Part shown: in pieces, positions 12,601 through 62,222 of the stretch
Position numbering within the stretch: the stretch's first letter is position 1
Layout of the letters: the number at the start of each line of letters is the position of its first letter
Assembly (NCBI RefSeq): GCF_000372725.1
Contig: NW_005201277.1
Span: 134,347-198,346 of the forward strand
Direction of reading: 5' to 3'
DNA: 64,000 nucleotides
DNA from: Emiliania huxleyi CCMP1516
Taxonomy: Eukaryota
Notes under the pieces: model-generated
Database searches by the model: none
What the model was told of the DNA's origin: nothing
What the model saw: only the letters and a program-made list of their open reading frames with translations
Made by a program: the position numbers and the translations under genes

Positions 12601-14274
12601 GCGTGGGGCCGTCGGTGTCTCGTCTCTCCCCCCCTTGCAGCGGCGCCTCTTATATAGGCGACGAGCTGCTGGTGGTGCCGTCCGAGGCGCGCGCCAAGGA
12701 GGTTGTCGAGTTCCGGCTGTTGCGTGCCGAGGCGCAGGCGGGCGCACCCCCTACCCCCACGGTACCCGAACCCATTCCCTACCCCCACGGTACCCGAACC
12801 CATCCTCTACCCCCACGGTACCCGACCCACCCCCCCCCCCCCCCCACCCCCACACACACACGCGCGCTGCCCTTCTCCCTGGGAAGCGTGCACACGACGC
12901 CTCCCTCCTGTGTGCCGACGCGCAGGCGCTCGCCGCCGCAGCGCCGCGGCGCGGGAGAAAGGGGGGAGGTGCAAAGCTGCTGCCGGCGCTGCTCAAGGCG
13001 GAGTCGTTTGGCTCGCTCGAGGCCGCGCGGGGGAGGGTGTCGCCCCACTCCCCTGTTCACAGCTACACGGGGCCGACAGCTGTGAACAGGCCGCGCGGGA
13101 GGGCCTGTCCCACTTCCCGAGCGCGCGTGTCGAGCTCAAGCTGGTGGCGGGGGAGGGTGGGGCCGGTCGGCACCCCTCCCCTACCTCCACAGTACCCAAA
13201 CCCACCCCCCTAGGTGCGGGAGGGGGTGGGGCCGGTCACAGAGTCGGACGTGCAGCTGGCGCAGAGCGTCGGCGCGCAGGCGGTCGCCTGAGGAGCCTCG
13301 CGGCAGCGTCGAGAGTAGCGCTGCAGACCAGAGATGGTCCCGCAGGTGATCGCCTTCAACGTGCCTCTGGAGAGCAAGGCCGCCGGCCTCGCCGCCACGC
13401 TGCAGGTGCCCGTCCACTCGCACAGCATCATCTACGCCCTCGTCGACGCTGCCAAGGAGATGCTGGAGGCCCCGGCCGTCGACCCGCGCGGCGGGGGCGG
13501 AGATTGGGCGGAGATTGGGCGGAGATTGAGCCGAGGTTGGGGCCGGGACTAGGCGGCGATCGAGCCCGTGGTGGAGGCGCGGGAGACGGGGGAGGCAGAC
13601 GTGCTCGAGGTCTTCACGCTCACACTCAACCGCAAGGACCGCGCCGTCGGCATGTCCAAGCACACCGCCGTCGCCGGCTCTCGCGTGACGGCCGGCCAGG
13701 CTTCGGCGGGCAGCGCGGTGCGGGTGGTGCGGGGCGGCGAGGTGACGCATGAGGGGGGGGCGTCCTCTCGGGTCGTCTCGGGTCGTCTCGGGTCGTCTCG
13801 GGTCGTCTCGGGTCGTCTCGGGTCGTCTCGGGTCATCTCGGGTCCTCTCGGGTCCTCTCGGGTCCTCTCGGGTCCTCTCGGGTACCTCGGGTCCTCTCGG
13901 GTCCTCTCGGGTCCTCTCGGGTACCTCGGGTCATCTCGGGTCCTCTCGGCACCAGGTGATCCACGAGGGGGACGTCATCTCGCTCAAGCACTTCAAGCAG
14001 GAGGTGCGGGACGGCCTTGCACCTTGAATGCCGTGCGGCTCCCGTCGTCTAGACGTGGAGTCGCGAGGGTCGCCCGGCCCTTGCCCCACCACCTTGTGTG
14101 TGTGGAGACGTTAACCTTGCGTGACCTTACCAGGTGCGGACGATGAAGAAGGGGTCCGAGTGTGGGCTCATCCTCCGCGACTACGCCGACCTGCAGAGCG
14201 GCGACACCATCCAGTTCTACGAGCTCATCTCGCGCCGGCCGTCGCTGTACGAGGAGCAAGGGTCGGCCAAGTGA
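9195..14274 (+). CDS. infB: Translation initiation factor IF-2, organellar (probably mitochondrial); many GC-AG/GT-AG introns
   Basis: [42 protein letters not shown] motifs; C-terminal SLKHFK..V..G.ECGL; Arg-rich N-terminal presequence; TGA at 14272-14274. Confidence 0.93.
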
Positions 14275-19246: not shown

Positions 19247-20740
19247 ATGGTCTGCGCTCTCGAAATTCTTTTCTTCGCGAAGTCCACCCCGCCGCGCCGC
19301 TCGCGCCGCTCGCGCAGCATCGCCGCCGCCGCCTCCACCGCCGCCACCTATCCAGACACGCCGCCACCCGCCTGTCTCCTCGACCTCCCGACGGAGCTCC
19401 TCGTGCGCGCCCTCTCTCGCTGCAACAACCCCGCCGACATCGCTCGCGTCGCGGCCGTCTCGCTTCTCTTTCACGCCTCGCTTGTGGTGGAGGGCATCCG
19501 CTTGTGGGCGCGAGAGCGCGGCTTCGAGCTGCCGGCGCAGCCAGAGAACGAGGGCTGCGCCGTGCGGTGGCTGTGCTGTTCTGCGTTGCTGCGCGAGTCC
19601 AACCCGCCCGCGAGGGCGGCGGCAGGAATGCAGCACAGCGTTTTCATCGACGGGGAGGGGCGGCTCTCATCGTGCGGCTCAGCGCCGAATCAACGCCACC
19701 TCGGCCAAAGTCCAGGGCCACTTGGCCATGGTGAGGGCGTGACGCTGCTCAACACGCCGACCCTCCTCCCGTCGCCGCTGGGCGGCGAGCGCGCTGTGAG
19801 CGTGTCGGCCGCATCCGAGCACAACCTCGCCCTCGCCGCCGACGGCAGTGTCTGGAGCTGGGGCGTAGGAAGCGAGGGCAAGCTGGGCCACGGCGACGAG
19901 CAGCGCCAGCTGCTGCCCAAGAAGGTCGATACCTTGGCGGGGCAGCGCGTCGTCGCTGTGTCGGCGGGACTGCACCATTGCCTTGCCGTCACCGCCGACG
20001 GCGCCGTCTGGAGCTGGGGCTATGGAAACGACGGCCGTTTGGGCCACGGCGACGAGCAGCGCCAGCCGCTGCCGAAGAAGGTCGAGGCCTTGGTGGGTCA
20101 GCACGTCGTCGCCGTGTCGGGAGGAGTTTTCCACACCCTCGCCATCACTACCGACGGAGCCGTCTGGAGCTGGGGCGGTGGAAGCGATGGCCAGCTTGGC
20201 CACGGCAACCAGCAGCGCCAGCTGCTGCCGAGGAGGGTCGAGACCTTGGCTGGCCAACGCGTTGTCGCCGTGTCGGCTGGAGGCAACCACAGCCTCGTCA
20301 TCACCGCCAGCGGCGCTGTCTGGAGCTGGGGTTGGGGAGGCTATGGCCAGTTGGGCCACGGCGTCGTGCAGTACCAGCTGCTGCCACCAACGAAGGTCGA
20401 GGCCTTTGCTGGGCGGCGTGTCGTCGCCGTATCGGCTGGAGGCGATCACAGCCTCGCCCTCACTGCCGATGGCGCCGTCTGGAGCTGGGGCAATGGACGC
20501 TTTGGCCGGTTGGGCCACGGCGACGAGCGGCACGCTGAGCTGCTGCCGAGCAAGGTCGAGGCTTTGGCTGGGCAGCGCGTTGTCGCCGCGTCGGCTGGAC
20601 TGCACCACAGCCTCGCCCGCACCGCCGACGGCGCCGTCTTCACGTGGGGCAAGGGCGAAGACGGCCGCCTAGGCCACGGAGAGGACCTGTCGAACCAGCT
20701 GCAGCCCAAGAAGATCGAGGTGTGGGCGCCAGGGCAGTGA
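19247..20740 (+). CDS. F-box + RCC1-repeat (UVR8/HERC-like) protein, intronless
   Basis: LLDLPTELLVRAL F-box motif; about 7 repeats of VSAG..HSLA.T.DG.VWSWG....G.LGHG. Confidence 0.88.
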   Translation: MVCALEILFFAKSTPPRRSRRSRSIAAAASTAATYPDTPPPACLLDLPTELLVRALSRCNNPADIARVAAVSLLFHASLVVEGIRLWARERGFELPAQPENEGCAVRWLCCSALLRESNPPARAAAGMQHSVFIDGEGRLSSCGSAPNQRHLGQSPGPLGHGEGVTLLNTPTLLPSPLGGERAVSVSAASEHNLALAADGSVWSWGVGSEGKLGHGDEQRQLLPKKVDTLAGQRVVAVSAGLHHCLAVTADGAVWSWGYGNDGRLGHGDEQRQPLPKKVEALVGQHVVAVSGGVFHTLAITTDGAVWSWGGGSDGQLGHGNQQRQLLPRRVETLAGQRVVAVSAGGNHSLVITASGAVWSWGWGGYGQLGHGVVQYQLLPPTKVEAFAGRRVVAVSAGGDHSLALTADGAVWSWGNGRFGRLGHGDERHAELLPSKVEALAGQRVVAASAGLHHSLARTADGAVFTWGKGEDGRLGHGEDLSNQLQPKKIEVWAPGQ

Positions 20741-28770: not shown

Positions 28771-29964
28771 CCCACCAAATGCCGCCTCAGGGCGCCAGGC
28801 CGCCAGCCACCTCTTACACGCGGCCGGCGCCCTCTCGCGGCAAAAGCCAAAAGGGTCGAGCGAGCGGGCAGAGTCGCGATGTCCCTGCGCACCTGGGTGT
28901 TCGCCGCCTATATGCTCTATCCTGTGCCACGACGGACACGTTTTGACAATCAAAATCTACCTCAAAATTTGCGGCCGCCCCTCGAAATTTGCTGATCAAA
29001 ATTTGCGGTGGCCCGGATCGAAACCTGTACTTTGGCCAACTGCCAAAAAGCACCTTTGGCGGCTATTGCTCAAAACCCTGGGAGAGAAGGCCTACATAGT
29101 ATTACTGCATCCATGCGTCTGGTGCATGAGGGCTGTGGGTCGGGACATTTCACGGTCGGTGGCGCCGATATTGACCTCCGGAAAGCCCTCGCAATCGCTC
29201 GGCACGGGGTCACCGGCCACCGGGAGTGCTCTCGAGCCCTACACCGGAGCATCACGAGCCGGTGCGAGCTTGAAGACCCGAGATAAGTGCGGTCTGGGAC
29301 AGCTCAGGGTTGCTACTGATGGGCTAGGCCAGGAGAGCGACAGAGAAGGCGAGGTGGTGAGCTGGTAATCCATCGCAAGCGACCCGGAGCGCGCAACCGC
29401 GCATCTCGCCGCCGCGGGGCTCCGACTGGTTATCTAGACCTTCCTTCTTCCTCCCTGTTCCTTCCTTTCCCCTTCCCATCTCTTCCCGGCCTCCCGGCCG
29501 GCGCCTGCGGCGCCGTTCTTTTTTTTCCTTTTCTTAAAGAAAGAAAGAAAGAAAACAGACAACCCAAGGGAGGGATGGGAGGACGGCACGCCGCCACCAC
29601 ACAGGGATTTTAAGGAGAGGTGTGTGGTGCGCTAGCCGTCGCCCACCCTAGGGAGTCTGCCTCTTCCTATCTCTCTTCGCAGTCTCTCGCCGCTTCTCGC
29701 TGCATTCCTTTTCTTGCCACCATAGCTGCCTTGATTCCTTCGGACCACTAAACCGCTCTACCTATCCCATCCATTACCGTGCCCCATGTTTCAAGTGCGG
29801 TCGTTTTACCAGGCGCCCAACCGACGGCCGCGCCGCGATTTTTTTTTGCCTGCCCCGTCTTCGCCGTCGCGCGACGACCACGCCGGTGTCAAAACTTCGC
29901 CTTTTCTTTTTTCCGCCCTTCTCTTTTATACCTGGTAAAACGCATGCCAAATTCTTTGTTCACG

Positions 29965-31101
29965 ATGGTGCCCGCCTCGACGCCCTCTGCGCCGCCGCCA
30001 AGCGGCGCCGCGCCGCCTCCCGGCTCCGAGACTTTGGACCTTGGTCGCTGGCAGGTCGTCATCGCCGATGGGCACGCGGTGCTGCCCGAAGGCATGACGC
30101 ACTTGCCGGACGGGGCGTTTCGCGGCCGCACCTCTCTCGTCTCGGTCGCCTTCCCGCGCAGCCTCGCCTCCATCGGCAGCGGCGCCTTCGAGGGCTGCTC
30201 CTCGCTCGTCTCCATCGACCTCCCCGCCAGCCTCGTCTCCATCGGCAACCAGGCCTTTTACAGCTGTTCCTCCTTCATCTCCATAGACCTCCCTGCCAGC
30301 CTCACCTCCATCAGCGACTTCGCCTTCCGCGACTGCTCCGCCCTCTCCTCCGTCACCTTCCCCGCCACCCTCACCTCCATCGGCCGCAACGCCTTCGAGG
30401 GCTGCTCCGCCCTCGTCTCCGCCGCCTTCCCCGCCGGCCTCACCTCCATCGGCATCTGCGCCTTCGCCTTCTGCTCCTCCCTCGTCTCCGTCACCCTCCC
30501 CGCCGGCCTCACCTCCATCGGCATGTACGCCTTCAACAGCTGCGAGGCCCTCTCCTCCGTCACCTTCCCCGCCGGCCTTACATCCATCGACCACGGCGCC
30601 TTATACGGCTGCTCCGCCCTCTCCTCCGTCACCTTCCCCGCTGGCCTCACCTCCATCGGCAACAGCGCCTTCAACGGCTGCGAGGCCCTCGGCTCCGTCA
30701 CCTTCCCCGCCGGCCTCACCTCCATCGGCATCTTCGCCTTCTCCCGCTGCTCCGCCCTCTCCTCCGTCACCTTCACCGCCAGCCTCACCTCCATCGGCGG
30801 CTACGCCTTCTGCGGCTGCTCCTCCCTGACCCGCGTCACCGTGCCAGACACCGCCACGATCGGCGACGAGGCTTTCGAACCTGAGACCACCGTCCTCCGC
30901 CTCCCTCCCAAGAGAATGCGCGACCTGCAGCGCTGGTACGAGGCGGTGGCTTTTGTTCTGGCCTACAAACGCTGCCGCCCCCTCCTCTACGGCTGGCTAG
31001 AGCGGGCCCAGACCAGGCTCGGCTCTTACGGCCCGGACGGCGCGGCGCGCCAGCGCGACCTCGAGGAGTTCGAGGGCGATTTTGGGCTGCTTGTAGAGTG
31101 A
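29965..31101 (+). CDS. BspA-type (LRR_5/TpLRR) leucine-rich repeat protein, intronless
   Basis: About 11-12 repeats of 23 aa, FPAGLTSIGxxAFxxCSALSSVT. Confidence 0.9.
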   Translation: MVPASTPSAPPPSGAAPPPGSETLDLGRWQVVIADGHAVLPEGMTHLPDGAFRGRTSLVSVAFPRSLASIGSGAFEGCSSLVSIDLPASLVSIGNQAFYSCSSFISIDLPASLTSISDFAFRDCSALSSVTFPATLTSIGRNAFEGCSALVSAAFPAGLTSIGICAFAFCSSLVSVTLPAGLTSIGMYAFNSCEALSSVTFPAGLTSIDHGALYGCSALSSVTFPAGLTSIGNSAFNGCEALGSVTFPAGLTSIGIFAFSRCSALSSVTFTASLTSIGGYAFCGCSSLTRVTVPDTATIGDEAFEPETTVLRLPPKRMRDLQRWYEAVAFVLAYKRCRPLLYGWLERAQTRLGSYGPDGAARQRDLEEFEGDFGLLVE

Positions 31102-45665: not shown

Positions 45666-47008
45666 CTAGAAGCTGGAAGTGAGCGGGATGCCGCGCTCCT
45701 TGCACACGGCCACCAGCTCTGGCTGCTTCTCATTGTCCACGACCAGCTCCTGCACGCGAGGGGAGGTGCGATGGGCATTGGGCGGGGGAGGGGCGTGTGG
45801 CGAGGGGGGGCGTCTCGCGCCTTCAAGCTCGGGGCGGCCCCCTCCTTGAGGGCGGCGGCCAGCGCCTTGCAGCCCTCGTCGCCAATCTTGTTTTGGAAGA
45901 GAGCGAGCTCCTCGAGCCGCGGCGCTGCCCCCTCCTTGAGGGCGGCGGCCAGCGCCTTGCAGCCCTCATCGCCAATCTCGTTCTGCAAGAGATACAGCTT
46001 CTCGAGCCGCGGCGCTGCCCCGCTCGCGAGGACCTCCGCCAGCTGCGCCGCTTCCGCGTCGCCCCAGCCGAGTTCGATGTAGAACAGCTCGGTCGCCTTG
46101 CCAAACTGCTCCTCGAAGGCGCCCTCGTACAGCCCCTTCACCAGCGGCTTGTCGTCCTTGCCGTTGGTGAAGCTCTTCTTCTCCAGCTCCGCCGCGAACG
46201 CAGACGGCAGCAGCGGGGGGCGCCGGCCGCCGCTCTTGACGCAGTCGTCTCGGAGGCTGTCGTAGTCGTACTCCACGCCGGCGCGCATCTTGCCGAGGTC
46301 GAGCGAGAGGGTCCAGTTCTTGGTCAGGCTCGCCCAGCTGTTCTCGACGAAGCACCAGCCGCGGTCAAAGTACTTGGCCACGTTGGTGCCCTCGGCCTGG
46401 TCCTCCGCCTTGTGGCCGTCTGGGAAGGAGGTCAGCCGCAGCACGGTCGTTTTAGGGTGGGAGTAGAGCGTGCCGAGGCAGCCCAGCCCCTGCTTGAAGA
46501 GCGCGTTCTCCTCCTCGGTGCGCATGACGTCGTTGGCCGGGTCGGGGTGCTGGTGCAGCGAGCCGAAGTCCCAAAAGACGCCGAGCCGCGATATGTACGG
46601 ATCGCTGAGCAGAGCCTTGAGCGCCCTTGCGACGCGGGACAGGTTGGCTCCGATCGGGTCGGGGTGGTCCTTGGTCAGCCATGGGTAGGAGAGCGCGGCG
46701 ATGGGAAGGTGAGCCCCGTGATACTCAAGGTAGGCGAACGCCTCGACGAGGTCGGCGAGGGAGAGAAAGGCCTCTTTGGGCAGCGCCTGGCGATGGGTGA
46801 GGACGCCGCCCGCCTCGGCGTGGACGATGATCCAGTGCGCGTCAAGGAGGGCGACGGCGCCGCTCGCGAGGACCGGCTCCAGGTCGCCGCCGCCGAGCCT
46901 GCGCCACAGCTCCAGCTTCTTCTCGTACCGCTCCAGCTTCTCCTCGAAGGTCCTCGGACGCACCCACGAGTCGTAGGTCCGGCCCGGCTTGCTTTTTCCG
47001 CAGCCCAT
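45666..47008 (-). CDS. Myristoylated HET-like domain + RI-like LRR protein (GC-AG intron 45750-45820)
   Basis: MGCGKSK; ALSYPW...HPDP, VFWDFGSLHQ, YFDRGWCFVE, FTNG; LEKLYL.QNEIGDEGCKALA repeats. Confidence 0.8.
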
Positions 47009-47046
47009 GGCTGAACCGATTTGCTTTGCAAAAAAGCGCGCCGCCC

Positions 47047-47215
47047 CAGGGTTCGGACTTTCTGCGGGGTATGGTATGGTTGCCCATACCCCCCCGCATG
47101 TTGACAGACCTGCTCGGGTATGGTATGGCTAGTCTTGGGCGGTCAGGACCATACCCTCCCACCCCTTTGGGCCGTGATGGTACCATACCATACCCCGGAA
47201 AAAGTTGGAACCCAG
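47047..47215. mobile_element. Small MITE with hAT-like CAGGG termini; related single ends at ~22190-22230 and ~43261-43293
   Basis: Imperfect inverted repeat CAGGGTTC..ACTTT.T.CGGGGTATGGTATGGT. Confidence 0.6.
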
Positions 47216-47472
47216 GATAGGGTCCCCTGCACGAGCGGGATCTTTAGGGGAACGGTGGAGGTGAGAGAGGCAGAGAGAGCCCTCTGAGCGGAACGGAACT
47301 GTCTCTGGACGACGGCAGTGGAGCAAGTGAGAGCGAATGAAGTGTGGTACAGGGCCGCCGGAATGCGGAAAGGGCCGGGGCAGGCAGGGGGCGGTCGGCG
47401 GGGGCGCACGCAGCGGCACACAACATGCACATGCACATGCACATGCACATGCACATGCGCACTGTTCATGTC

Positions 47473-49324
47473 TCACATGAGCAGTCGGAGCGCCGTGAGG
47501 CCGAGGCCGGTGAGGGCCGCCATTGTGCCGACCGAGTAGCGCAGCAGGTCTCCCTTCTCCTGCTCGAGAGGAGGGGACAGGTTGGTGGGGGAGCCTTGCA
47601 CTTTGAATGCCGCGCCAGCTCCTGCCTACCTGGGTGTGGAGATGCAAGGGCTAGCCTGGCCTTGCCCTTGTGTGTGTGTGCGTGTGTGTGGAGAAACCTA
47701 CCTCCCTGCCCTACCTCTCCTAGGGTGAGGGAGGGAGAGAGAGCGAGTTAGCATCCCAAGCCCCTTGGGCCCATACCTTGGATACCTTCGCCCCGCTCAG
47801 CCGCCAGGCGTCGGCGAGGGGTGTCGCGTCTTCTCAACGAGACGCTCACTCCTCCTCCTCTCTCCCTACTCCACTACTACTCTCACTCCTCCTCCTCTCT
47901 CACTCCTCCACTACTACTCTCCCTACTCCACTACTACTCTCACTCCTCCTCCTCTCTCACTCCTCCACTACTACTCTCCCTCCTCCTCCTCTCCTGCTCG
48001 ATCTTGGAGCGGATCGCGCTGGCCTCGCGGTCGATCCTGAAGGAGCACGGGGGCCGTCCCTCAGCCGCGCGGGCCTTGGGACGGAGCCGCTGCGCGCTCG
48101 CCCTCGGATTGCTCCTGGCAAACGCCTCCGTCGTGCGCTCGTGCGTCTTTGCGTGCTCCTCTCGCATACGCCCCTTCACGGCAAGGGCGTGGAACGAGTG
48201 GGGCAGCCTCGGGCGCGTCTCGGGCGCGTCTCGGGCGCGTCTCGGGCGCGTCTCGGGAGTGACGCAAGGGGTGCCTCGGGAGTGTCTCGGAGGCGTCTCT
48301 CGGAAGTGCCTCGGAAGTGTCTCGGAAACGTCCCTCACCTGGAACAAGTTGAGGTCGAGCCGGCTCGCAGCCTGCGTCCGCTCGATCTCGTACCGCGTGT
48401 CGGTCCGCTCCTGTTCACAGCCGCAGCTGTGAAGAGACGCCGTTCACACCAGGTGCCGCGTACCGCGCGTGTCGGTCCGCTCCTTGTCTCGCTCGTGCCT
48501 GAGAGGAACAGCGGCGGCGTCACGGAACCCCGACAACCCTTCGTTGCTACGTCCGTCCCGCCGCGCCGCAGTCTGCGCCGCCCAGGCGAATCTCGGGGAA
48601 TCTCGGGCCATCTCGGGGAATCTCGGGCCATCCCGTCCAATCTCGGCCAATCTCGTCTCATCTCGATCTCGCGCCGCAGCTCCAGCCGCAACTTCTCGAG
48701 GTCATTGCGCAGTCGCTCCTATATGGCTCATGGCGCCGCGGCTCGCGCAACGAAGCCACCCGGCGCAGCCCGCTTCGCTGCCGGAGGTCTCCATCTCCCT
48801 CTGAAGCGACGCGTGCTGGCTCTCGAGCGTCACCTGCAGGAAGGCAGTCCCGGGAGCGCTCAGACGAGGTTCGGGCACAGAGAGAAGGAGGTGCGGCCCT
48901 CGAGAGGTCCTCGAGCTTTGTGCGCGCGCTCTCGTGCCGCGTCTCCTGCTGCGACGTGATGAAGGTCAGCTCGGACCGTCCCACGTACTTTGCCTACGCG
49001 TTCCGAGAGGAGGAGAAAGAAGGCTCACGGACTGCGGCTGACTTGCTGAGACAGACGACAAGATTGCCTTGCCTTGGACCGAGACTCCTGCTCCGCCAGC
49101 GACCGCAGCAACAGCCGCGCCAGCACCTCGGCGGTCGGCGGAGGCAGGCCGCCCGCGCGTAGCTCGTGCACCATGCTGAGAGAGTCCAGCGGCGCCGCAG
49201 CCTTCCTCTTTGCGCCTTCCGCTTTCGTGCAGAGGCCGGCGGGGCGCAGCGCTTGCGGTAGCCTGCGCTGGTGCACAGCTCGGCGCGCGCATACGGAGGA
49301 GGCGGCTGCTCGCCACTTCGGCAT
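47473..49324 (-). CDS. DUF1640 / CCDC90-MCUR1-Fmp32-like mitochondrial coiled-coil protein, multi-exon
   Basis: LDSLSMVHEL..GGL....AE, ERLRNDLEKLR.EL, YEIERTQAASRLDLNL, GRMREE, IDRE; C-terminal TM DLLRYSVGTMAALTGLGLTALRLLM*. Confidence 0.8.
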
Positions 49325-49449
49325 CAGTGTTTTGAGCGGGCAGCTTCGGGCACCGATCGGTCCAATGCCAGTCTCCGCGCAGTCGGGCGACGGTCGGCTA
49401 GCTCGCGAGTAGAGGCCCCGCCCACCCAGGGTACCCCTCAAAAGACGAC

Positions 49450-49765
49450 GAACTCGAACGTCGCGTTGACCCGCCCGCCGCCGTCGAGCCAAATCAGCAC
49501 CGCCGCCTCCTCGCCTCGCCAAGCCGCTGCCACAACCTCCTCTGGCACCACCCCGCTGCTCGGCTCGGCCTCCGTGCCTCCCTCGCCGCTCGAAGCAGAG
49601 GCCGCGGCACTCGCACCCACCGCCGCGTCTCCGCCGCCTGCCTCGGCCGACGGTGCCTTGCTCCGGCTCGCAGCCACCTCCCCGAGATGCGTCCTGCGTC
49701 CTGAAGGCCTCGACGCACTCGGCGTGGCCCTTCTCCTTGGCCCAGTGCAGCGCCGTCTTGCCGAA
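49450..49765 (-). pseudogene. Ankyrin-repeat gene fragment with frameshift
   Basis: TALHWAKEKGHAECVEAFR then, in another frame, VVAAAWRGEEAAVLIWLDGGGRVNAT. Confidence 0.55.
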
Positions 49766-50274
49766 CACGCAGTTGATTGATGGGAAGGCGAAACACAGTC
49801 CGACCAACGACTGGGACACCAACGCGGTATGGGTGGACGTGTTGTGCGACGGAGTTTTGTTGTAAAATTCTTTTTTCGCATAACAGGAGCATTTGAGCCC
49901 GAAGGACATCCCGCATACCCGACTGACGTACCTGACGGATACCTGGACGGCATGGGCAGGACGGGTGCTAGGACGGGGCTGTGCTCACTGCTCAAGCCTC
50001 CAGGGATAAAAAAAAGGGTGGCTGGGCTCGTGGCCCAAGATGTACACAATCGTTGTCAGTACTGTTATGTATATGCACTCTGCCCCCTATGCACCAGCTT
50101 CGCATCGTGATATGCATCCTTACCGATCCATAACCCTAGGGCGTATACATTTACGTATTTGCAAAATACGTCGCCCTCTCCCACCCTCGCGCGTCGCGGC
50201 GCGTGAATGCACAACACAGATACATAATACATAGGCGAATGGATGCGCATTACGACCGAGTGTCACATAACTCC

Positions 50275-50505
50275 TATGAATTATGTATTATGCATTTGCA
50301 TTACGCACTGGGAGTCCACATCGTGTGTTATGTATTATGTATTATTATGTATTATGTATTATGTATTATGTATTATGCACTGCCACTGGAAGTCCACATC
50401 GTCTGTTATGTATTATGTATTACGTATTACGTATTACGTATTACGCACTGGGAGTCCACATCGTATGTTATGTATTATGCATTATGTATTATGCATTATG
50501 TATGA
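50275..50505. repeat. AT-rich (TATGTAT)n array with three CACTGG.AGTCCACATCGT units
   Basis: Direct reading of the sequence. Confidence 0.8.
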
Positions 50506-50822
50506 TGTAGACCGGCGAGATGGGGCGCAGCCCCAGCGAGCTCGTTTTTAGAGCGAGCGCAGCGAGCCGATAGAATAGAAAAGGTAGGGTTAGTGTTAAC
50601 CCGGTCGGTGATAAGCCCGGAAATATATGTGACAAGAAGATCCCCAGCGAGCTCCGCTGTTGCCAGTGCACATACAACCCTAGCCAACTTATGGCAGCCC
50701 TAGCGGCAGCGCGAAGTTAGGGTCTGGGCCGGGGGGGGGGGGGGGTTGTTAGGGCTGCATGCTGCGGAGCGGACTCCCCCCCAGCTCTCACACACAACCC
50801 GGCGGAGGGTTGCGGCGCTTGA

Positions 50823-51213
50823 ATACATAATACGGATACGTAATACGTAGTACATAGCCCTCTCCGGCGGGCTTTCGGCGCTTGACACATAATACGGATA
50901 CGTAATGCGTAGTACATAGCCCTCTCCGGCGGGCTTTCGGCGCTTGATGCATAATACGGATACGTAATACGTAGTACATAGCCCTCTCCGGCGGGCTTTC
51001 GGCGCTTGATACATAATACGGATACGTAATGCGTAGTACATAGCTCTCTCCGGCGGGCTTTCGGCGCTTGATACATAATGCGGATACGTAATGCGTAGTA
51101 CATAGCCCTCTCCGGCGGGCTTTCGGTGCTTGATACATAATGCGGATACGTAATGCGTAGTCCATAGCCCTCCCACGTGCAGGCGCCGCTGAGTGATGCA
51201 TAATACGGATACG
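50823..51213. repeat. 62-bp tandem repeat, ~6 copies
   Basis: Units start at 50823, 50885, 50947, 51009, 51071, 51133. Confidence 0.92.
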
Positions 51214-51351
51214 TAAGGTAAGGTAAGGTAAGGTAAACTTCTCCACACACACGAGGTGGTGGGGCAAGGGGGGGCAACCCTCGCGTCTCCACGTCTGACG
51301 ACAGGAGCCCCACGGCATTCAAAGTGCAAGGCCCAGTGCGCGTGGGTGAGC

Positions 51352-51423
<72 letters not shown>

Positions 51424-52510
51424 TCACGTCACTGCATCCTCCGCCGGTTCCTCCCGTCGCCTCTTCTTTGTTCGAATGTTTTTCAATCCATCCTTCACGA
51501 AGCCCTCCCATGTAGCTAGCGTTCTTGGCGAATGTCTCGAAATGGCCAGCAGGCGCTGTCTGCTCGCGGTCTGTGCGGGCCGCTCGTCCTCCTCGCCCTT
51601 CTTTCGTCCTCCCGTCCCACCCCTCCACCATGGCCTTCTCGGCACTTCTTTCTCCATCCGCCTCGCCCTGCCTTTTCGCATCGTGCCGTTCGCCCTCCAT
51701 TCGGTGACCTCCATGGCTGTCCGCCCCTTTTTGGGTGGCGCTCTCGATACGGTTGCGTCAACCTCGACGTCGCTGTCGCCCTCCCCGTCCCCGCCGGCGT
51801 CCGTGCCTCGGTTCGCGTCATCGGTAGCGTCTCCGTTGTTCCCTCGTGCCCCGCCGTCGCCCTCTCTGCTCGGGCCGTTAGCGATTTCGCTCCTCCTGCG
51901 TGTCGCCCCTCCGTCCCCTCCCCTTTCTTCGTCGTCATCGTCGCTGTCGCGAAAGCCCTCCGGTCCCTCGATTCCCTCGCCTATCCCCTCCGCTGCGTCG
52001 TCCCAGTTTATATCCTCATCCTCTGCGCACGTCGCGTTGGCTTCCTCTTTCCCCCTTTCCTCCCTGCCCCTCTCGCTGTCTGGTGTTAATGGACCCCCTT
52101 CCTCTCCCTCGCCACCGTCACCGTCTCCATCCCCGTCGCTACTGCCCTCCATGCCCGCCGCCCTTTGTTTCACACTCGTCTCTGCCATGTCCGCCGTCGC
52201 CGCCGTCCTGTCTGCTGCGCTCTGTGCTCCGTGGTACAGTCGCTTATTGTTGCTCAGGATTAGCTCACGCACCAGGACAGCCTCCTGCTCGTTATTTTGG
52301 CTTGCCGATATGCATCCAAAGTTCCACGCTAGCTCCTCCTTCGTCACGTCTATCTTTTTGCAGTATCTCGCGAATGCCGTCCGCGCTTGCTGGGGTGTTA
52401 TTGCGTTCGGATCCGCCCTGGTCCCCGCCCTGTATCCCATCTCCTTGCGGTGGCTCCTGTATGAGTCCCCATATGACCATGTGATTTCTTGGCCTTCGGA
52501 TACGTAATGT
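51424..52510 (-). pseudogene. Gene fragment beginning with a SET-domain C-terminal motif, followed by an acidic low-complexity region
   Basis: EGQEITWSYGDSY matches the GEE(L/I)T.xY motif; upstream SET motifs absent. Confidence 0.4.
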
Positions 52511-52805
52511 GCATAGCTCATAGCGCCAATGCGACATCGGCAGCGCTGCACTGTTTGCTGAGACATAAAGGCGAAAACATCGTACGTATTGCATAAGACA
52601 CGCTATGGACTATGCATTCGCGCGACGTCTGACCCTGCCAATGCATAGGCAGGACACACGGGTGCATATAGGGCCGGTACGTATGCATAGCAGTACTGAC
52701 AACGTCTCGATGTACAAAGAGGGACAGGCACCAATGCGGCCGCCCAAGCTCACAGATAGCCCCCTTGGGTGGCGGCGGCGGGCACGCGCCATATTGCCGC
52801 AGGCA

Positions 52806-54973
52806 TCAATGCGGCCGCCCAAGCTCACAGGTGGCCCCCTTGGGTGGCGGCGGCGGGCACGTGCCATTGCCGCACGCCAGGCAGCCGCAGCGATCGACGG
52901 CCGCCCACGCTCGCGCGTCCATGTAGTGGATTGCCAGGCTGGTCGCATCGCACCACCGCTGCAGTCCACCGCGGCCGCTGATGTCGTGGAAGCGCTCGTC
53001 GTCGAAATGTCGGATGTCGAGCGCCGCTGTCCACAGTCCGGCGGTGGCGTCGGCGGGCCAGATACGACGAAATGGCAGGCGGCTGTGCGCCACCCATTCG
53101 GCCACATCACGAGAGTAGACCCACCCGAGGCCCGACGGGTAGGGCAGGAAGAGAAAGAGGCCCTCGGCGAAGCTCGGGCGGAGCGATTTGGGCAGCATGC
53201 AGAGCCACAACGACTCGTTGCGCTTCAGCCCGCCCGCACGCAGCCTCTGCACGTCGTCATTACGGCACCCGCGCACGAACCGACCCCAGATGAGGTGCGA
53301 TGTCGGGATCGGCTCGGCGCGGATCGCGCGGAGCAGCGCGTGCACCCGCACGTACGTGTCGTCGTGGATGCGCATGATATAGCCCGCACGCGGGTGCGCC
53401 TCAATCGCCCAGCGGAGCAGTGCGAGCAGCTTGCTGGCCTCGGGGTCCGAACGGCTGCGCGCGGGCACCGCGCCCCCCGGGACAAAGCCGTCGGAGTCGC
53501 TACAGTTGGCCACCAGTATGTCGCCGTGACGCCGCATCTCGGCCCTCACGGAGCGGCGCAGGAGCGCGCTTGCGGCGGAAGAGCCGCCACCACCGCTGCC
53601 GCCGCCGCCGCCGCCGCCGTGGCCGCCGCCGCCGCCACCACCACCATTGCCACCCATGCCCAGCGCATCTGCACCGAGGACGAACGCGAGCGCAACGCGC
53701 TTTGCTAGGTGGTACGACGGGTAGGCGAATGTGAGTGTGTGCAGACCGTGGCGGATCGCGTCGCGGCGCTCCACGTGCGCTGCGCGTCCAAGCACGCCGA
53801 TGACGAGCTCCACGCGAGATGTCGCGGCGGTGGTGTGGGAGGCAGTGGGCGCAGTGGGCAGGGGCTTGGTGCCGTCGTCGTCGTTAGCGGGTGCAATGCG
53901 GCGTGTCGCGGGCCCCGCAGCCCGCAGCGGTGACATGGCCGCGCGACGCATCGGCCACTCCGCCCAAACCCTGCCGCGCAGCGAGCGGTTCGACGCCGCC
54001 TCGGCGGCACGGCACGCGACGCGCGGCAACTCGCATGGCGCCATTGCTGCATAGCGGGCATGCTCGACGGCGTGCGGCGCGCCGGCGTCGACTGCGCGAC
54101 CGCCGGTGTTCCCAGGGAAGCTCCAGGCCGAGCCGTGCAGCAACTTGGCGCCCGAAGTGAGCGAGGCGGCGGACCCATCGTAAAGCGAACCGCACGGCAG
54201 CACCAGCTGCGCGCGCTTCGGCAGAAACCGCAGCGCCGACAACTGAATATTCCACGTGCACGGCAGCTTTGCCACCATGGCTGGATGGCGCGCGAACGCC
54301 GCATTGAACCAGTCCTGGTCGCCAAACTCGAGGCGCGCGGATGGGCCAGCTGCGCCGAGCGCGCGCCACACCGCGTGGCTACTCACGTTGAGCCAATGCT
54401 GGCTGCGCGCGCGGGCGAGGTCCATCAGGACGAGGCCGCCATTGTACGGTGCCGCGGCGTACGGCCTCAACCAATACTGCGGCTTCCACTTGCGCAGACG
54501 GATTGCGTCGAGCGCCATGCCGAAGGCGATTGCTGACGAGGCGGCGCGCGCAGTCTCAAAGACGGCCCATAGTTCCGCCACGTCGGCTCGCCACAGAACG
54601 TCGGCGTCGACGGCGACAAGCGAGATCACGTCCGCTGGCAGCACGTGCGGCAGCGCCACCTTGACAAGGGTTGAAAAGTCGAGAGCGCTGCGCTGAAGTA
54701 GGGCTGAAGCTGAGGCCGGCATCAGCTGCGCCACCGTCTGGAAGACCATTGCGCGCGTGTGAAGCTTGCAGCGCAGCCACGCGCCACCGCATGCGCTCGC
54801 GAGAAACTCTGCAAGAGTGGTATCGCTGGCCTCATCCGCCATCACGTGGATTTGAAGAGGCGACGGCCAGCTGTAGTGGTGGAGCAGCGACTTTATCATG
54901 ACGATTGCCTGCGCGGCGGAGGCGTTGCCGCAGCCAGCGGTCCAAACGTGGAGCGGCGTTCCTCTCGCGTGAT
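52806..54973 (-). CDS. Bifunctional glycosyltransferase: GT8 (LARGE/GXYLT-like) + GT31 (beta-1,3-GalT-like); 5' end lost in the gap
   Basis: MIKSLL, VDADVL, YNGGLVLMDL, GDQDWFN, LPCTWNIQL, LLHG; then ERRDAIR, AEMRRHGDIL, IHDDTYV, YPSGLGWVYSRD. Confidence 0.85.
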
Positions 54974-55073
54974 NNNNNNNNNNNNNNNNNNNNNNNNNNN
55001 NNNNNNNNNNNNNNNNNNNNNNNNNNNNNNNNNNNNNNNNNNNNNNNNNNNNNNNNNNNNNNNNNNNNNNNNN
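54974..55073. other. Assembly gap (N run)
   Basis: N bases. Confidence 1.
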
Positions 55074-55117
55074 TATCCCCTGACTTACCTTCCACGAACC
55101 TTCCGCGAGCCCTCTAG

Positions 55118-55759
55118 GCGCCGTCGTCGTCTTTGGAGGGTGGAGGATGGGCGCGATGGGGCAAGACGTGCTCCTCGGCGATACGTCGCTCCTGCTAGAT
55201 GCGACCCGCCGACACTTCCGAGAGACACTTCCGCGACACTTCCGATACGTCGCTCCTGCTAGATGCGACCCGCCGACGCTGAGAGACACTTCCGAGAGAC
55301 ACTTCCGAGAGACACTTCCGAGAGAGCTCGACCCGCGACACTTCGACGAACCTTACACGAACTGCCTCCGAGACACTTCCGAGAGGCGTCTCCGAACCTG
55401 CCTCAAGCCTGCCAGCCCCGAGCGTGCCTCGTGAGCCTTCCGGGACCCTTCCGGGACCCTTCCGGGACCCTTCCGGGACCCTTCCGGGACCCTTCCCACG
55501 CAGGTACGTGCTCGACCTCGACGCGCCGCAGGTGCACCCGCCCTCGCCCAGCAGCGCTCGCGAGCGGGCCAGCCGCGCGTGGGCCGCCCGTGGTGCGCGG
55601 TCTCCAGGACACGTGGGCGCACGCACGCGGTGGCGCGCGAGGGTCGCGGCGGCCGCCGCGCCGCAGCGTGGCCGATGGGCGTGGATCGCCGCGGGGTGTG
55701 CGGCGGCGCTGCCTCTCCTCGCCCGCGTGGCTCACTCTGGCCTCCGCTGCCTCTGGTAG
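55118..55759 (+). CDS. 3' exons of a Kelch-repeat protein with C-terminal hydrophobic segment
   Basis: Spliced GAVVVFGGW...VLLGDT|YVLDLD; WAWIAAGCAAALPLL near the stop. Confidence 0.55.
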
Positions 55760-56872
55760 CGTGCCGGCGCGGCGCAGGATCCCGGCGGGGCGGCGGGCGG
55801 AGAGGAGGGGGGCGGCGCGAGCGGAAGCGACGGGAGCGGAAGCGACGGGAGCGGAAGCGACGGGCCGCCCTCTGAGCCGACGGGCGGGTGGACGGCGGTC
55901 GGCACCACGCCTAGAAACCACCGCCCCCTACCCCACCGTACCCGAACCCACCCTCCCCTACCCCACGGTACCCGAACCCATGGACGGCGATCGGCCACTA
56001 GGCCTAGAAGAAGACGCGTTCTTGCCTTCCGACTAGGGCTCGACTAGGGCTCGAGTGTGTTCCCCTGTATTCGACCAGTATTCGACCGTATTCATGCTTC
56101 CCCCGAATTCACGCGGTGCTCTGAAAACTTGACACAACACCGTCGTCCCGCCCTGAGGTTGGCGTATTCAGCGCGTAGGCCACCACCCCGTCCTCGGCCC
56201 GCTCGTCGACTACCACGGGCAAGTGGTGCCTCTGCTGGCGCTGATGCAGCACCTCGGGGGCAGCGCGCACGTCGCGCAGGCGGGCGCCAGCGGGAGCGAG
56301 AGCGAGGGCGGGGAGGGGAGCGGGAGCGAGGGCGGGGAGGGACAGGAGGAGAGCGGGAGCGAGGGCGAGCAGGGCGAGGAGTGATCTGGCAGGGCATGGA
56401 CCATGGTCGCAGTGTCGTCTTGGCTTTTGCGGACCCTTTGCCCGCACCACTGCTCCCCAGCACCCAGGGTCGGCGGGGAGGCTGGCCGTGCATGCGAGAG
56501 ACGGTTTGATGAGAGACTGTGGTGCGGTGTGTGCTGCGAGGGTCTCGGTCCTGCCCTCTTGCCGTGCCATCCTCAGGGAATCGCGGCTCAAGCGGGAGGG
56601 AGCGGAGACAGTGGGCACCGAGCGAGGTCTGGGTGAGCGTCGTGTGAGACCTTGATGATTGCTTCTCCGTGCTCCGTCCGACTGAGGTCGGGCGGGCTTC
56701 AGGGGCGCGCTTCTTGCCGGGGGTTGCCGCAGCGGGAGTGGGCGCGAAACATAAGGTTATTTCCATCAAGTTGCGGGCCCGCTCACTTAGGGCGGACTTA
56801 CGCACGTCCCCTCGTCTCCTCGATCGCGATTGCATGGCAGTGTGAGCCCCCTCTTCGCGGCAACTTACACAC

Positions 56873-58359
56873 ATGCCCAGCCTGCTCCGCCATCGACTCG
56901 GATCGCTCGGATCGCGCTCGCTCTCCACACTCCTGCCAACCTCGCAGCGAGCTCAGGATGCTGCCGACGCGTTTGTGCACGCCTGGGTCTCCGGCGAGCC
57001 GCTCTCTTCGGAGCGCTTTCCTGCAGCGCCCGCGTCGGTGGACGAAATGTACCAGACGCACCTCGCCATCCAGCAGCATCCTCTCGTCTCGACAAAGCTG
57101 GGAGGCCTCGGCGACACACGCCGGGCGCCGAGCAGGCAACTCTGTCAACCTTTGCCGATGACATTCATTCCGCTCCTTCTCCAGGCGGGTACAAGCTGGG
57201 CGCCATTGGCGGCGCTGGGCAGCCCTGCATCTACGCGCCGCTCTTCAGAAACTACCTGGTGGAGGCACCGAGACGCCTCCATGGCACAAGAATCCTCCCG
57301 TCGCTTAGGCGCCACTAAGCACCCTGCCGCCGCCTGCGTCGTCCCCGCTGCTTAGGCGCCTGGCGCCGCGTTGTCGGCCGCCGCGATCCGACTCTGGCAA
57401 GTGGAGCCCGAGTTCGCTATAGTACTTGGGCGAGACCTCCCCACGCAGCCTGACGGCCGGCCACACAGCGTCAGCGACGCTTGGGCTGCGGTGCACCAGG
57501 CGTGTGTCCGCATCCCCACTCGGAGGGTAGTCTTGCAGCCTCGCGCATCTCGCTCCACGCCACTCCTCTCGCATGGGATGGCGTGGCGGCGTGCGCGTAT
57601 CCCGTCCCCAGGGTCGAGGGGTTGACGCTGGCGCTCCCCTTGCAGGTGGTGCTGTGTATCGAGTGCTGCGGCGCGAGACACGGCGAGCCCAGCGCGTGAG
57701 AGAGAGCGCCCGCTCGTCACGCCCTTGTCTGTGACCAGGCAAGCGCGGCAGGCCGGAGGCGTACGAGGCGTCGACCAAGCTCGGGTCATACTCGGACACG
57801 CTCAGTTCCGGCGACAACTTGCCCCGCGCGCTTTGCGCGAACCGAGGTGAGGCGCCAATGCATGCGTGTGCGAACAGGCGGCGTCGTCCTCGGCCCGCGG
57901 CTAGACGCGTCTGCGCTGAGGATAGACGATTTGCGCGGGGCGGCGACCCTCTCGGTCAACGGCGCCCCCGCTGCGCAGGGATCGGGGGCGGCAGCTCCAG
58001 AGGGAGGGCCTGTAGAGGTGCGTCGGTAGAGCGTTCGGAGCAGCGACGTGTAGCATTAGGGGCGAGAAGGCTCTCGAGAGGGGCCGTACTAGGGGCCGTA
58101 CTGAGGTGGAGCTCGCAAGCGACTGAGCCCCAAGAGCATGCTGCGCCGTGGCGCACGGGAGAAGATCACAAATTGCCCCGACGAGAGCTAGGCGCTCGCG
58201 TGGCTCGCCAACCACCTCAACGGACGCGGGCTGGAGCTGCGCGCGGGCCAGCTGGTCGCCACGGGTCAGACGTGCAGCACCAAGGCCGTGCGCGCGGGCG
58301 ACCGTCTGAGGGCGGACTTTGGACGGCTAGGCAGCCTCGAGATGACGGTCGCCCCGTAA
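56873..58359 (+). CDS. Fumarylacetoacetate hydrolase superfamily, 2-keto-4-pentenoate hydratase (MhpD)-like; multi-exon, probable mitochondrial presequence
   Basis: GYKLG, VEPEFAIVLGRDL, GVVLG, ALAWLANHL..RG..LRAGQLVATG, ADFGRLG. Confidence 0.85.
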
Positions 58360-59654
58360 TTCCCGTAGAAGCCTCGAGGTGAAGCGGCTATGACTCGCAC
58401 ACGCGGCCACGTGGAGAGTTGGCTATGACACATTTTTCTCTTGTGTCTTTGGGCCCGCCCCCGGGGCGCCCCGCGCCCGCCGCGGGCCCCCCGGGGTGAT
58501 GCTCCGATAAACCCTCCGGATCTTCGACAAAAGTTGGATATTTCTTTTTTAAAATTGCAAGGTGTGAGTAAGAGGTTTATGATAGGGCTACTACGACGAA
58601 CTATGCGGCAATCGACTGGGGGGCAGCCCCCCAGCATATCGTCCCGCCTCGGCGGCACACACTCGACGAGGACAGTCCGGCCGCCGAGATCGTGTCGCGC
58701 GCCGGCGACGATTGCGGCGTGGTCGTTTTGAAGCGAAGATGGCACGACCACCGCCCTGCTTCGCAGACCGGGCGAGGAGGGGCCTGCTCCCGTCCCGCGA
58801 GGAACAGGAGGTCTCCCCCCCTCACCCGGCCTGAGCAGCGGCGGATGGACGGCAGCCCCTTGAGTCGAGGGCGGCGCGACCATTGCCGAGCTCCAGCGAC
58901 CAAAGGCCCGGGCGTCTGCTGATGGTCTCGCCGCCCCGCTCCGCGCCGCCCGCCGCCGCGCCGCGCCGCCGCCCGATGATTATTAAGTAATAATTAATTA
59001 CCAAATAAGTAATTATACCACCAGCAGCCGCGCCGCCCCGCCCTGCATCGCCCGCTGCCTCGCCGCACCGCCGCCTCGCGCCGCCCGCCGCCGCGCCGCG
59101 CCGCCGCTTGCACGCGTAAAGCGAGGCGTATGCGTGACGCATCACTGAGCCTCCACCCGGCTTGACACGGCACCAAAATACACGACGTCTCAGCGACGTC
59201 CTACGAACCGTGGGCATGGATGTGCATAAGGTGGCCGACAATTGCATTAGTGGCTCTTACATATCCATAGCGGGACTAATAACCTCCCACACACACACAC
59301 ACACACACACAGTGTGGTGCGAGGGAGTTTGGTTGTAAAATCTTTTTGTGTGCTGTGAGCCGGCGTTATTTTTTTTTTTGAGCTTAGCCTTCGATGTTAT
59401 GAAACAACGCAAGGCGGACATGGCATATCGCTCTCGGGCTCACAGACATCCCTCACACCCGCCGCACACCCGCGCCCCCGCGCGCGCCCCACCTCGGCCG
59501 GGAGAAAGGGGAGTGACAGTTTGGGATGAAAGCCCGAGTATGTTGAGTCCTGGCTCAACAACGCAGATAACAAGAGGGGGTGGTCCGGCTCCCAAGTCCG
59601 CGTGATTTTTTCTTTTGCTTTTTGGCGCGCCGCTTTTGGAGTCCTTGCCCTCGC

Positions 59655-62222
59655 ATGCGCCGCGCCGTGAGTGCGGCTAGGCACCTGCTGCAGAGCGTTG
59701 CCGTGGTGCTCTTCTGCTTCCTGCCGCTGCTGCCGTTGCTCCTGCTATTCTTCGCCATTATCTTTCCGCCACTAGCCATCGCCGGCTCGCTTGTCTCCGG
59801 CGACGATATCGGCCTGCCACCTGCCTGGCATCGCTGGCGCCGGCTGCCTCTGCTCGTCCGGCTACCGTTCGTCCTTTTCGTGCACCTCCCGATCGGCATG
59901 TACTGGCTCCTCGGGTTTATTGTCGAGGGCTTCCTTCTGAAGCCGGCAGCTCTCCTCGCCTACGAGCTCTTAGCCCGCGGCCCTCCTCGGTCCACAGAGC
60001 CCTGCGAGTCGGATGTCGAGTCCAACGAACCCAGCTCTCGGCGTCCGGCGCCGGCCAGCGAGGACGGAGGACGCTATCGGGAGCACGACTCAGTTTGGGC
60101 GGCGCTCGAGGGCGACGGGGACAAAGTCATACGCGGCGATGTGCGGTTGCTTAGCCTCTCGTGGCTGATGGGGCTGGCCGACCAGAATGGGGTGCTGCCG
60201 CGCCGGCAGGAGCTGCCCGAGGAGGCGTTTCTGGACGCGGCGCGGCTGAAGCGGATAGAGGCCGGCGATGCAGCCCAGCCCTCCCCTGTTTGTGGGGCGA
60301 GTGTCCGGAACCTCCTGTGAACCTGCCTCTAGGCGGGCGCGAGGCGCAGCCTCGATGTGCGCCGGTTCGAGCGCGTCTTCGCCGCCTGGAGCAAGGGCGG
60401 CGGCGGCCTCTCCCCCTTCCTCGGCTTCATGGCGACCCCGCTGCACAGCAGGCGCAACGCCGACGGGCTCCTTCCGATCGTCTCCGTCTCTAGAAGCGGA
60501 ACACGTGTCCATGGGTAGTCCAACTAGGGCTCGAGAGGACGCGTACTCCGCTGTATTGGGCCGTGAGTACTCACTGTAGCACCCCTCGTCGTCACACGGT
60601 GCTCTGAAGACTCTGCACAGTACCGCCTTCCCGCCCTGAGGCTGGTGCATTCACCGGGCAGGTCTCCATCTCCTACTGCTGGCTCGAGGCCGCGCATCCG
60701 GATCGGGAGGGCCGCCAGCTGCAGCTGCTCTGCCGCAAGCTGCGGAGTCTGTACGGCGGGCGCGGCCTGCTCGGCGCGTGCCGCGAATACGGCTTCTCCG
60801 ACATGGTGAGCTGCCTCCCGCGCCTTGCCCACCGCCACTCCCACTCCCTTCCTCACCGCCAGCCCCTTCCTGGCTCGCGGAGGGCGTCTTCCTCGACTGG
60901 TCCTCGGGCTACCAGAAGGACCCGGCGCTGTGGAGAGGGTGGATGGCGGACCAGGCGCTGTACGCCAAGAGCGACGGCGCGCTCAGTGAGCAGCAAGCCG
61001 CCGACCGGCGCGCGTACGAGGCGAGCCGAACCGCGGAGCAGAAGGCCGCCTTTGATCGCATGCTGAGCAACACGATGGATCTGTGGTACGCGCACTCCGC
61101 CATCACCGTGGTGCTGCTCACGCAGCTGCCCGACGAGCTTCCCGCCGGCTTCGACCCGAGCCGGACCTACGACAGCCGCGGATGGACGACCTTCGAACGG
61201 TGCTCCGCCGAGTTAGCAAAGATCAGCTCTTTGCAGTCGGCTCGGTGGAGCCTTGTCATCGACGTCTCTGACGAGGGCGGCGGCGCGGAGCGGCGCCTTC
61301 CGACGACGCCGCAGCGCATGGCGAAGCTGCTCGCCGGCTGCCGCTTCACCAACGGAGCAGACTCCTCCCTTGTGCTGCAGCTGTACGCGAAGACGGCGGC
61401 CGCGGTGCTGGGGACGGTGAGTGTCCTCGGGCACTCTCCCGTCCTCTCACACGTTCATAGTGCACTCACTTTCCCTCAAGCTCGTCACACTCACACGTTC
61501 ATAGCGCACTCACTTTCCCTGTCCACATAACTCACTCTTCACACTCTCCCTCCTAGGTGAGAGAACTCAGCTACGTAGGGCTGCCGCTCGTGCGCGGCGA
61601 CGAGTGGACCTCGCCGACGCGCCTCGCAGAGGCCCTCAACTATTGCGAGCGACTGCAGGAGCTGGCAGTCTGCGGCGCTCGTCTGGACGACGAGGGAGCG
61701 AGAGAACTCGCGGCCGGGATCGACCATGGCGCGCTGCCTGAGTTAGACATACTGTCGCTCAACGGCAGCCGCTTTGGCGCAAGGGGCGTCGCGGCCGTCT
61801 GCAGTGTCTTCGAGCGGGGCGTGGCGCGGAGGCTGACGCTCCTCACGCTGATGGGCACGCCCATCGGCGACGAAGGGGCGGCGGCGCTGGCCTCGGCGCT
61901 GGAGACACGGATGCTGCCTCCGAAGCTCGCGCTCTCCGTCTCCCTTTGCGATGTCGGCGATACGGGTGCGAAGGCGATCGCCGCTGCGCTGCGCCGCGCA
62001 GGCCCGGGAAGCCGCTGTCGCGTCTTTTGCTACTGGAACAGGATCGGACTCGCCGGCCGGTCGGCGCTCCTTGGGGCGCTCGAGGCCCAGCACGGGCCGG
62101 CGTTTGACCACTTGCTTGCAGGGACGCAGCACACTTGGCTGCTTGGGTCGGCGGCGTTCGTGCGCGCGATGGCGAGGGGGTTGCGCAGCGCTAGCGAGAG
62201 CGGTACCTTTCTGCCCACGTGA
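59655..62222 (+). CDS. Membrane-anchored HET-like domain + RI-like LRR protein, multi-exon
   Basis: Two N-terminal hydrophobic helices; LPRRQELPEEAF, SISYCW...HPD, VFLDWSS.YQ, YDSRGWTTFE, FTNG; L.L.G..IGDEGAAALA repeats. Confidence 0.78.

Follow-up and report, generated by a model that had tools for sequence, protein, structure and literature searches.

The 64,000-nucleotide stretch analysed here (the window) is a GC-rich part of contig NW_005201277.1 (positions 134,347 to 198,346) of strain CCMP1516 of the bloom-forming coccolithophore Emiliania huxleyi, a species also named Gephyrocapsa huxleyi. We identified three genes in the window (genes 1, 2 and 3) which, as judged from their sequences, each represent a different subfamily of a single large algal family, whose shared core is fused directly to leucine-rich repeats (LRRs) or ankyrin repeats. 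The core is predicted to have a TIR / nucleoside-deoxyribosyltransferase (NDT) fold. In the gene 2 subfamily the 30-residue LRRs combine a nearly fixed scaffold with four hypervariable face positions, a feature new here. A search of titles and abstract openings found no description of such a core-plus-LRR family in haptophytes, subscription papers being outside its scope.

A sequence-only reading of the window had proposed three HET-like, TIR-related genes, and all three core loci lie where it placed them (Table 1). The genes have in common the motif order S[YH]xW, HPD, xD[FYW]xS, RGWxxxE and FTx(1-3)D, the last of which extends the motifs listed in that reading, and the RGWxxxE glutamate is kept in all three, as had been claimed. 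A hidden Markov model (HMM) of the core, built from 150 gene 2 relatives and run on a six-frame translation of the window, recovered gene 2 (E 6e-118), pieces of gene 3 (E 7e-22, 2e-10 and 4e-8) and gene 1 (E 7e-8) with no fourth locus, the next match having an E value of 0.63. Genes 2 and 3 share 28% identity (E 1e-29). Gene 1 is remote from gene 2 by BLASTP (E 0.002), while alignment of the two subfamilies gave 97% probability (E 7e-11) over all four motifs. Pfam identified ankyrins in gene 1 (E 2e-21) and LRR_6 in genes 2 and 3, and found no match to NB-ARC/NACHT or any other central NTPase domain in genes 1-3; in the family's proteins the core passes straight into the repeats, where NLR/STAND proteins have a central domain. 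Pfam, HMM, relatives and structure models agree with the earlier proposal of a modular family that joins a TIR-related core to repeats, lacks NB-ARC/NACHT, keeps the glutamate and differs in its anchors.

Conservation across the core looks enzymatic. In 150 sequences of 34-84% identity S77, D87 and W188 are invariant, R186, G187 and E192 are conserved at 99%, and D117, Q123, H154 and Y183 at ≥95%. Predicted core models (pLDDT, a model confidence score, of 95 and 93) have a parallel sheet with alternating helices in the order A-A-B-B-C-C-D, matching solved members of the TIR / NDT / MilB group, and place E192 in the third helix (residues 187-199), after the third core strand. By topology this is the alphaC position of the glutamate of enzymatic TIR domains, and E192 (Glu222 of gene 2) is the predicted catalytic residue. 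Of 188 full-core proteins 180 retain that glutamate, as do 111 of the 120 gene 3 relatives listed, inside a nearly invariant polar set, which argues against the core being a non-enzymatic scaffold that signals through self-assembly like MyD88 or MAL, an explanation we regard as improbable.

The predicted strand-helix order, the alphaC glutamate and the top structural matches all liken the core to enzymatic TIRs (SARM1, SpbK, ThsB, plant RPS4/RPP1) and to TIR-like NADases (TeTIR/DUF4062); NADase activity has been reported for another extended TIR-like family in the available part of a preprint (10.64898/2026.09.21.753143). TIRs rank first in comparisons of the whole core; for the fold, TIR and nucleoside deoxyribosyltransferases tie in Z. 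The core's fold class is also that of nucleoside 2'-deoxyribosyltransferases, MilB and DNPH1, and according to the same preprint enzymes of NDT type share the catalytic glutamate. With an unchanged layout, the core could be an NDT/MilB/DNPH1-like N-glycosidase or transferase acting on a nucleotide other than NAD+. We consider this unlikely, given the first rank of TIRs for the whole core and a motif order in gene 1 that equals, by eye, that of TIR domains in Table S9 of PMC12489294 (F.SH.W, W.D..C.Q, R.WC..E). The NDT-type enzymes differ in being small stand-alone metabolic enzymes (chains of 137-167 amino acids among the matches), whereas the algal proteins carry repeats and anchors.

Four of the Table S9 G. 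huxleyi TIR domains have the gene 1 motif order, again by eye; they differ in having no HPD motif, and three of them have 5-7 membrane helices. For two domains of that table the top AlphaFold match is named a HET domain protein. As far as the available part of that study (Shaler et al. 2025, PMC12489294) goes, LRR and NBS domains are both missing from the 15 TIR genes of G. huxleyi that it describes as responsive to infection, and its survey likely did not count the present family because it used Pfam TIR profiles, which miss the core.

Variation in the gene 2 subfamily was assessed in proteins and in DNA. The protein set comprised 52 repeats from 22 CCMP1516 paralogues and gene 2, collected with a pattern that itself fixed the places of L, P, N, I, D and G; in this set, four positions of the xLxLxx strand have an entropy of 2.5-3.5 bits, and scaffold positions left unconstrained by the pattern are nearly fixed. 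The DNA set, drawn from metagenome loci and gene 2, retained 25 distinct repeats of 36 after removal of duplicates and of eight divergent loci. Here the four face positions carry 11-13 residues each, with proportions of non-synonymous (pN) and synonymous (pS) differences of 0.64 and 0.18, against 0.07 and 0.09 at the other 22 positions, pairs not being independent. In gene 2 itself the two 90-nt units differ at eight of their first 84 bases, five of the eight lying in the four face codons. In the gene 2 subfamily, then, repeats that are almost identical as DNA differ non-synonymously along their exposed strand. A near-identical scaffold with variable face codons, and an effector joined to a repeat sensor, are likewise features of plant TIR-NB-LRR proteins and of fungal NLRs whose repeats show high internal conservation, as far as the latter are described in the available text of PMC4986451; the algal family differs in having no central NTPase and few LRR units, only two to six per CCMP1516 protein where more than one was found. 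A metagenome relative (L015, 2387-4825, plus strand) has the same core with about 17 near-identical 28-residue LRRs and is flanked by proteasome and helicase genes.

The family is large. Against 1.84 billion representatives at 50% identity the gene 2 core matched 2,705 at E 0.001 and 1,184 at E 1e-10, the named members coming from E. huxleyi, Isochrysis, Prymnesium, Prorocentrum and Symbiodinium. CCMP1516 alone has at least 35 gene 2-like proteins on at least 26 scaffolds (told apart by length) and at least 11 gene 3-like proteins on at least 11, one scaffold being common to both types; these are lower bounds from the best 120 matches per list and exclude two UniRef-only rows with no scaffold. 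The earlier caveat that such genes may be expanded genome-wide therefore proved apt, with members on at least 36 CCMP1516 scaffolds. Pattern-limited searches found no relatives of the core in viral contigs or in prokaryotic genomes. Other domains among 79 scanned members include EF-hands (3), Sel1 (2), a kinase (1) and ubiquitin (1).

Anchors recur by subfamily and, on the sequence evidence, are subfamily traits. Gene 2 has the MGCGKSK start and LRRs proposed earlier, in both sequence and Pfam, and of 177 Met-starting full-core relatives 56 start with MG, 43 of these with Cys at positions 3-6. Gene 3 has two N-terminal hydrophobic peaks (windows from residues 18 and 72) along with its LRR_6 match, in line with the two transmembrane helices and LRRs first noted, and a hydrophobic segment occurs in 35/35 gene 3 relatives with long N-termini compared with 3/34 gene 2-like ones. 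We predict membrane anchoring by acylation for gene 2 and by two helices for gene 3. The earlier description of gene 1 as having no anchor may not hold, because a basic, Cys-rich patch lies near its C-terminus (5200-5250, minus strand) and its homologue P0121 ends in a Cys cluster.

The label HET-like was borne out in part. Fifteen proteins were scanned with Pfam at E values up to 10, the HET model (PF06985) having a gathering cut-off of 22.5 bits. Exon 1 of gene 1 scored 15.4 bits (E 0.025, model positions 5-87 of 146) and its homologue P0122 13.2 bits, both under the cut-off, and genes 2 and 3 gave no HET match whatever. This weak match in gene 1 and large lineage-specific expansions are points of likeness to fungal HET (PF06985; Podospora HET-E/D/R, BH; Neurospora TOL); in difference, the algal cores are fused to LRRs or ankyrins, carry lipid or helix anchors and have no NACHT, genes 2 and 3 being unmatched. 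The available text of PMC4986451 places HET homologues in Haptophyceae including E. huxleyi and describes HET as resembling TIR up to helix alphaC.

The TIR/NDT topology of the core is predicted. Foldseek, at E 0.001, found nothing similar in either the PDB or the viral sets. The RGW motif of the core presumably resembles that of HET. Solved-structure sequences gave no match to the core at E 10 in one search, three matches to a viral nucleoprotein (E 0.7-0.9) in another were dismissed as chance, and a profile that included the LRRs found LRR proteins in all 60 best matches listed. PADLOC returned ankyrin matches and one JAB match (E 0.0016, 45 residues), the latter dismissed as chance. The ESM Atlas returned unnamed haptophyte clusters at 0.85-0.86 and no usable named match once LRR families were set aside. 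The family probably works like TIR-repeat receptors yet, by the tests run, falls outside Pfam HET, Pfam TIR and the NLRs.

Because a core predicted to be TIR-like is joined directly to repeats which, in one subfamily, vary fast at the likely binding face, these are likely to be simple sensor-plus-enzyme defence proteins. We give roughly even weight, for and against, to the fuller proposal that genes 1-3 act as one-chain receptors of non-self, with no NTPase switch, whose core would cut NAD+ or a related nucleotide. The anchor is predicted to hold such a receptor on the cytosolic face of the membrane. Its repeats may bind a fast-changing foreign or damage ligand, as the variable face of the gene 2 subfamily suggests, with proteins of the E. 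huxleyi virus (EhV) or of bacteria as first candidates. The ligand, once bound, would set the core free or make it cluster at the membrane, if TIR biology is a guide (available part of PMC9153377), and the core might then use its alphaC glutamate to cut an N-glycosidic bond, most likely that of NAD+, which would drain NAD+ or yield a signal of ADP-ribose type. In favour of the proposal, five PF06985 rows in the EhV infection/recovery Table S2 of PMC12489294 indicate that other HET-annotated G. huxleyi genes respond.

Several findings weigh on the other side. HET was absent from 13 of the 15 scanned proteins and under the cut-off in the other two, and Pfam TIR / TIR_2 was absent from genes 1-3, from those 15 proteins and from the 25 of 47 families listed for the 79 members. 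The core glutamate was placed by topology and motif, without residue-level superposition. Hypervariability holds for the gene 2 subfamily, the only one examined; pS is low throughout (~0.1) and the pairwise pN/pS figures are not independent. Among nine close paralogues whole-core pN/pS is ~0.9, since loops of the core vary too: 26 columns hold four or more residues and 195 of 282 positions are invariant. Variable surface loops of the gene 2 core (46073-46918, minus strand) lie at core positions 62-70, 105-108, 201-203, 218-229 and 279-282. The mechanism of HET killing is given as unknown in the available text of PMC10890737 and likewise PMC10197012, and no biochemistry or structure of HET is given in that of PMC12881547. 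Finally, a search of the EhV time-course table of PMC12489294 for six family ids was negative, its positive control being found, and the four LRR_6 genes in that table all have ids outside our family lists. LRR kinases, a different family, have been linked to virus susceptibility (PMC3834299, available part).

The same infection data, in which the responsive genes included no family member among the ids searched, would fit variable repeats that serve recognition of something other than pathogens, such as strain self/non-self, mating or life-cycle partners, or grazers, as in a few fungal HET genes. Gene 3 RNA in contigs from three field metatranscriptome studies and the work of fungal HET genes in allorecognition (PMC10197012, available part) point the same way; that source puts the Podospora HET genes with a role in allorecognition at only about 5 of 125, and the predicted cytosolic facing (acylation motif, no signal peptide seen) fits intracellular ligands, so that we think this explanation rather unlikely. 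Taking the receptor proposal further, E. huxleyi might possess dozens of immune receptors, tethered to membranes and lacking an NTPase, whose hypervariable LRRs recognise proteins of giant viruses or of bacteria and then activate an NADase that bridges HET and TIR. This is tentative and rather doubtful; if true, strain-specific EhV resistance would for the first time be explained at the level of receptors, and HET domain biochemistry would gain a tractable point of entry. The family bears on how E. huxleyi senses giant viruses and on how HET kills, questions raised in the available parts of PMC12489294 and PMC10890737, respectively. Gene 2 suits direct enzyme tests and allele-versus-virus tests because its core is compact and lies within one exon, its catalytic residue is predicted and its four variable positions are defined.

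The sequence-only reading had also connected the three genes with a giant gene carrying NUDIX and ART domains, which might handle signals of ADP-ribose type that they produce. That link found no support: none of 411 collected proteins has an ART or NUDIX fusion, and no ART or NUDT9 gene occurs in 32 related loci (84.9 kb together, most <3 kb). If the window were a defence island, genes 1-3 would make such signals and the NUDT9/ART/LRR giant would read or remove them. The giant's NUDIX and two ART domains would suit this role. For an assembly of 167.7 Mb (size from the available part of PMC13508280) uniform scatter would yield 0.003 windows per genome with three members in 64 kb at 50 members, close to the at least 46 named in CCMP1516; the family count is a lower bound, however, and 300 members would give 0.6-0.8. 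A second CCMP1516 scaffold of 75,293 nt carries three gene 2-like genes and one gene 3-like gene (P0005, P0049, P0064, P0288; ids 244151, 244161, 244165), the latter being the one of the 11 listed gene 3-like proteins that shares a scaffold with a gene 2-like one, against 0.6-0.7 expected. Neighbouring genes in eukaryotes rarely imply a shared pathway. The three genes are not tightly clustered, genes 1 and 2 being separated by 38 kb that include housekeeping genes. In that interval lie genes for a translation GTPase, an RCC1/F-box protein, a BspA LRR protein and a ClpB-like protein, as well as a long interspersed nuclear element (LINE). We regard the island explanation as very improbable.

Family members do clump, four scaffolds carrying 13 of the at least 35 gene 2-like CCMP1516 proteins, and this together with the scatter expectation makes local enrichment plausible; nothing found supports a pathway shared with the ART giant. 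Genes 1-3 likely occur together because expanded gene families abound in this region. What gives the locus its value is the family with its variable LRR face, to which the local cluster and the ART story add little.

Table 1 Positions of genes 1-3, their parts and the giant gene within the window
Feature	Position	Strand	Description
Gene 1	7580-5165	minus	core (TIR-fold/HET-like, predicted) and ankyrins; 649 amino acids; four exons; introns inferred
Gene 1 exons	7580-7007, 6936-6767, 6540-6448, 6277-5165	minus	spliced open model
Gene 1 Glu197 of RGWxxxE	6920-6922	minus	motif interrupted by intron 7006-6937
Gene 1 intron 2	6766-6541	minus	putative; 226-nt dispersed repeat with CA run; GA donor, AG acceptor
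Gene 2	47008-45666	minus	MGCGKSK start, core, 30-residue LRRs (LRR_6); 423 amino acids
Gene 2 exons	47008-45821, 45749-45666	minus	GC-AG intron inferred
MGCGKSK motif	47008-46988	minus	predicted myristoylation/palmitoylation signal
Gene 2 core	46918-46073	minus	282 amino acids, single exon
TIR/NDT-like part of gene 2 core	46723-46223	minus	from structure models
Gene 2 Glu222 (core E192)	46345-46343	minus	predicted helix alphaC; 99% conserved in 150 sequences
Two gene 2 LRR units	46018-45839	minus	90 nt each; near-identical scaffold, variable face codons
Gene 3	59655-62222	plus	two hydrophobic helices, core, LRRs (LRR_6); 698 amino acids
Gene 3 exons	59655-60260, 60333-60479, 60662-60805, 60883-61416, 61557-62222	plus	five exons, four introns
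Gene 3 predicted transmembrane helices (two)	59706-59924	plus	hydropathy; residues about 18-36 and 72-90
Gene 3 Glu404 of RGWxxxE	61195-61197	plus	Glu in 111/120 best relatives listed
Giant gene	41484-32772	minus	NUDIX (NUDT9-like), ART, LRR, RRM, second ART; ~2,850 amino acids; two GT-AG introns inferred

The gene 3 model is identical to the public model EMIHUDRAFT_440557 and seven residues apart from EMIHUDRAFT_446549. In three RNA runs, one from each of the metatranscriptome studies, contigs join across its introns: three introns are bridged in every run and the remaining one in a single run. The gene 1 model aligns with homologues P0121 and P0122 at 34-36% identity along about 600 amino acids. 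In two RNA runs picked for gene 3 its RNA amounted to a single 182-nt piece that crosses no splice joint, which says nothing either way, and no contig in those runs bridges intron 2; the gene also appears in two further runs that resemble DNA, with no splicing seen there.

Intron 2 of gene 1 consists entirely of a dispersed repeat of about 225 nt with further copies at 51219-51422, 14013-14112 and 9886-10006, and a copy seems to supply the intron acceptor of the translation-factor gene near 10,020. On sequence grounds the repeat is possibly an intron-forming element. We dropped the idea of a fresh insertion with target-site duplication, as 6-nt junction repeats also flank two RNA-confirmed gene 3 introns and another copy appears to end the intron near 10,020.

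The giant gene begins with MGSSGSK, and its two ART domains share 31% identity with R-S-E-type motifs kept in both. A Pfam-blank region of ~350 amino acids precedes the second ART domain and contains a DAGSRHT motif, which we take to be of the kind found in apyrase/actin-like ATPases. The BspA-type LRR_5 gene (29944-31101, plus) has near-identical repeat scaffolds with variable positions and is perhaps, from its sequence, another diversifying family. The window further contains a multi-AP2 gene (1491-4856, plus), a LINE reverse transcriptase ORF that looks intact and lies where GC content is lower (14555-18385, plus), a gene with F-box-like and RCC1 repeats (19247-20740, plus) and a GT8 and galactosyltransferase fusion (52806-54899, minus) that reaches the assembly gap at 54974-55073.

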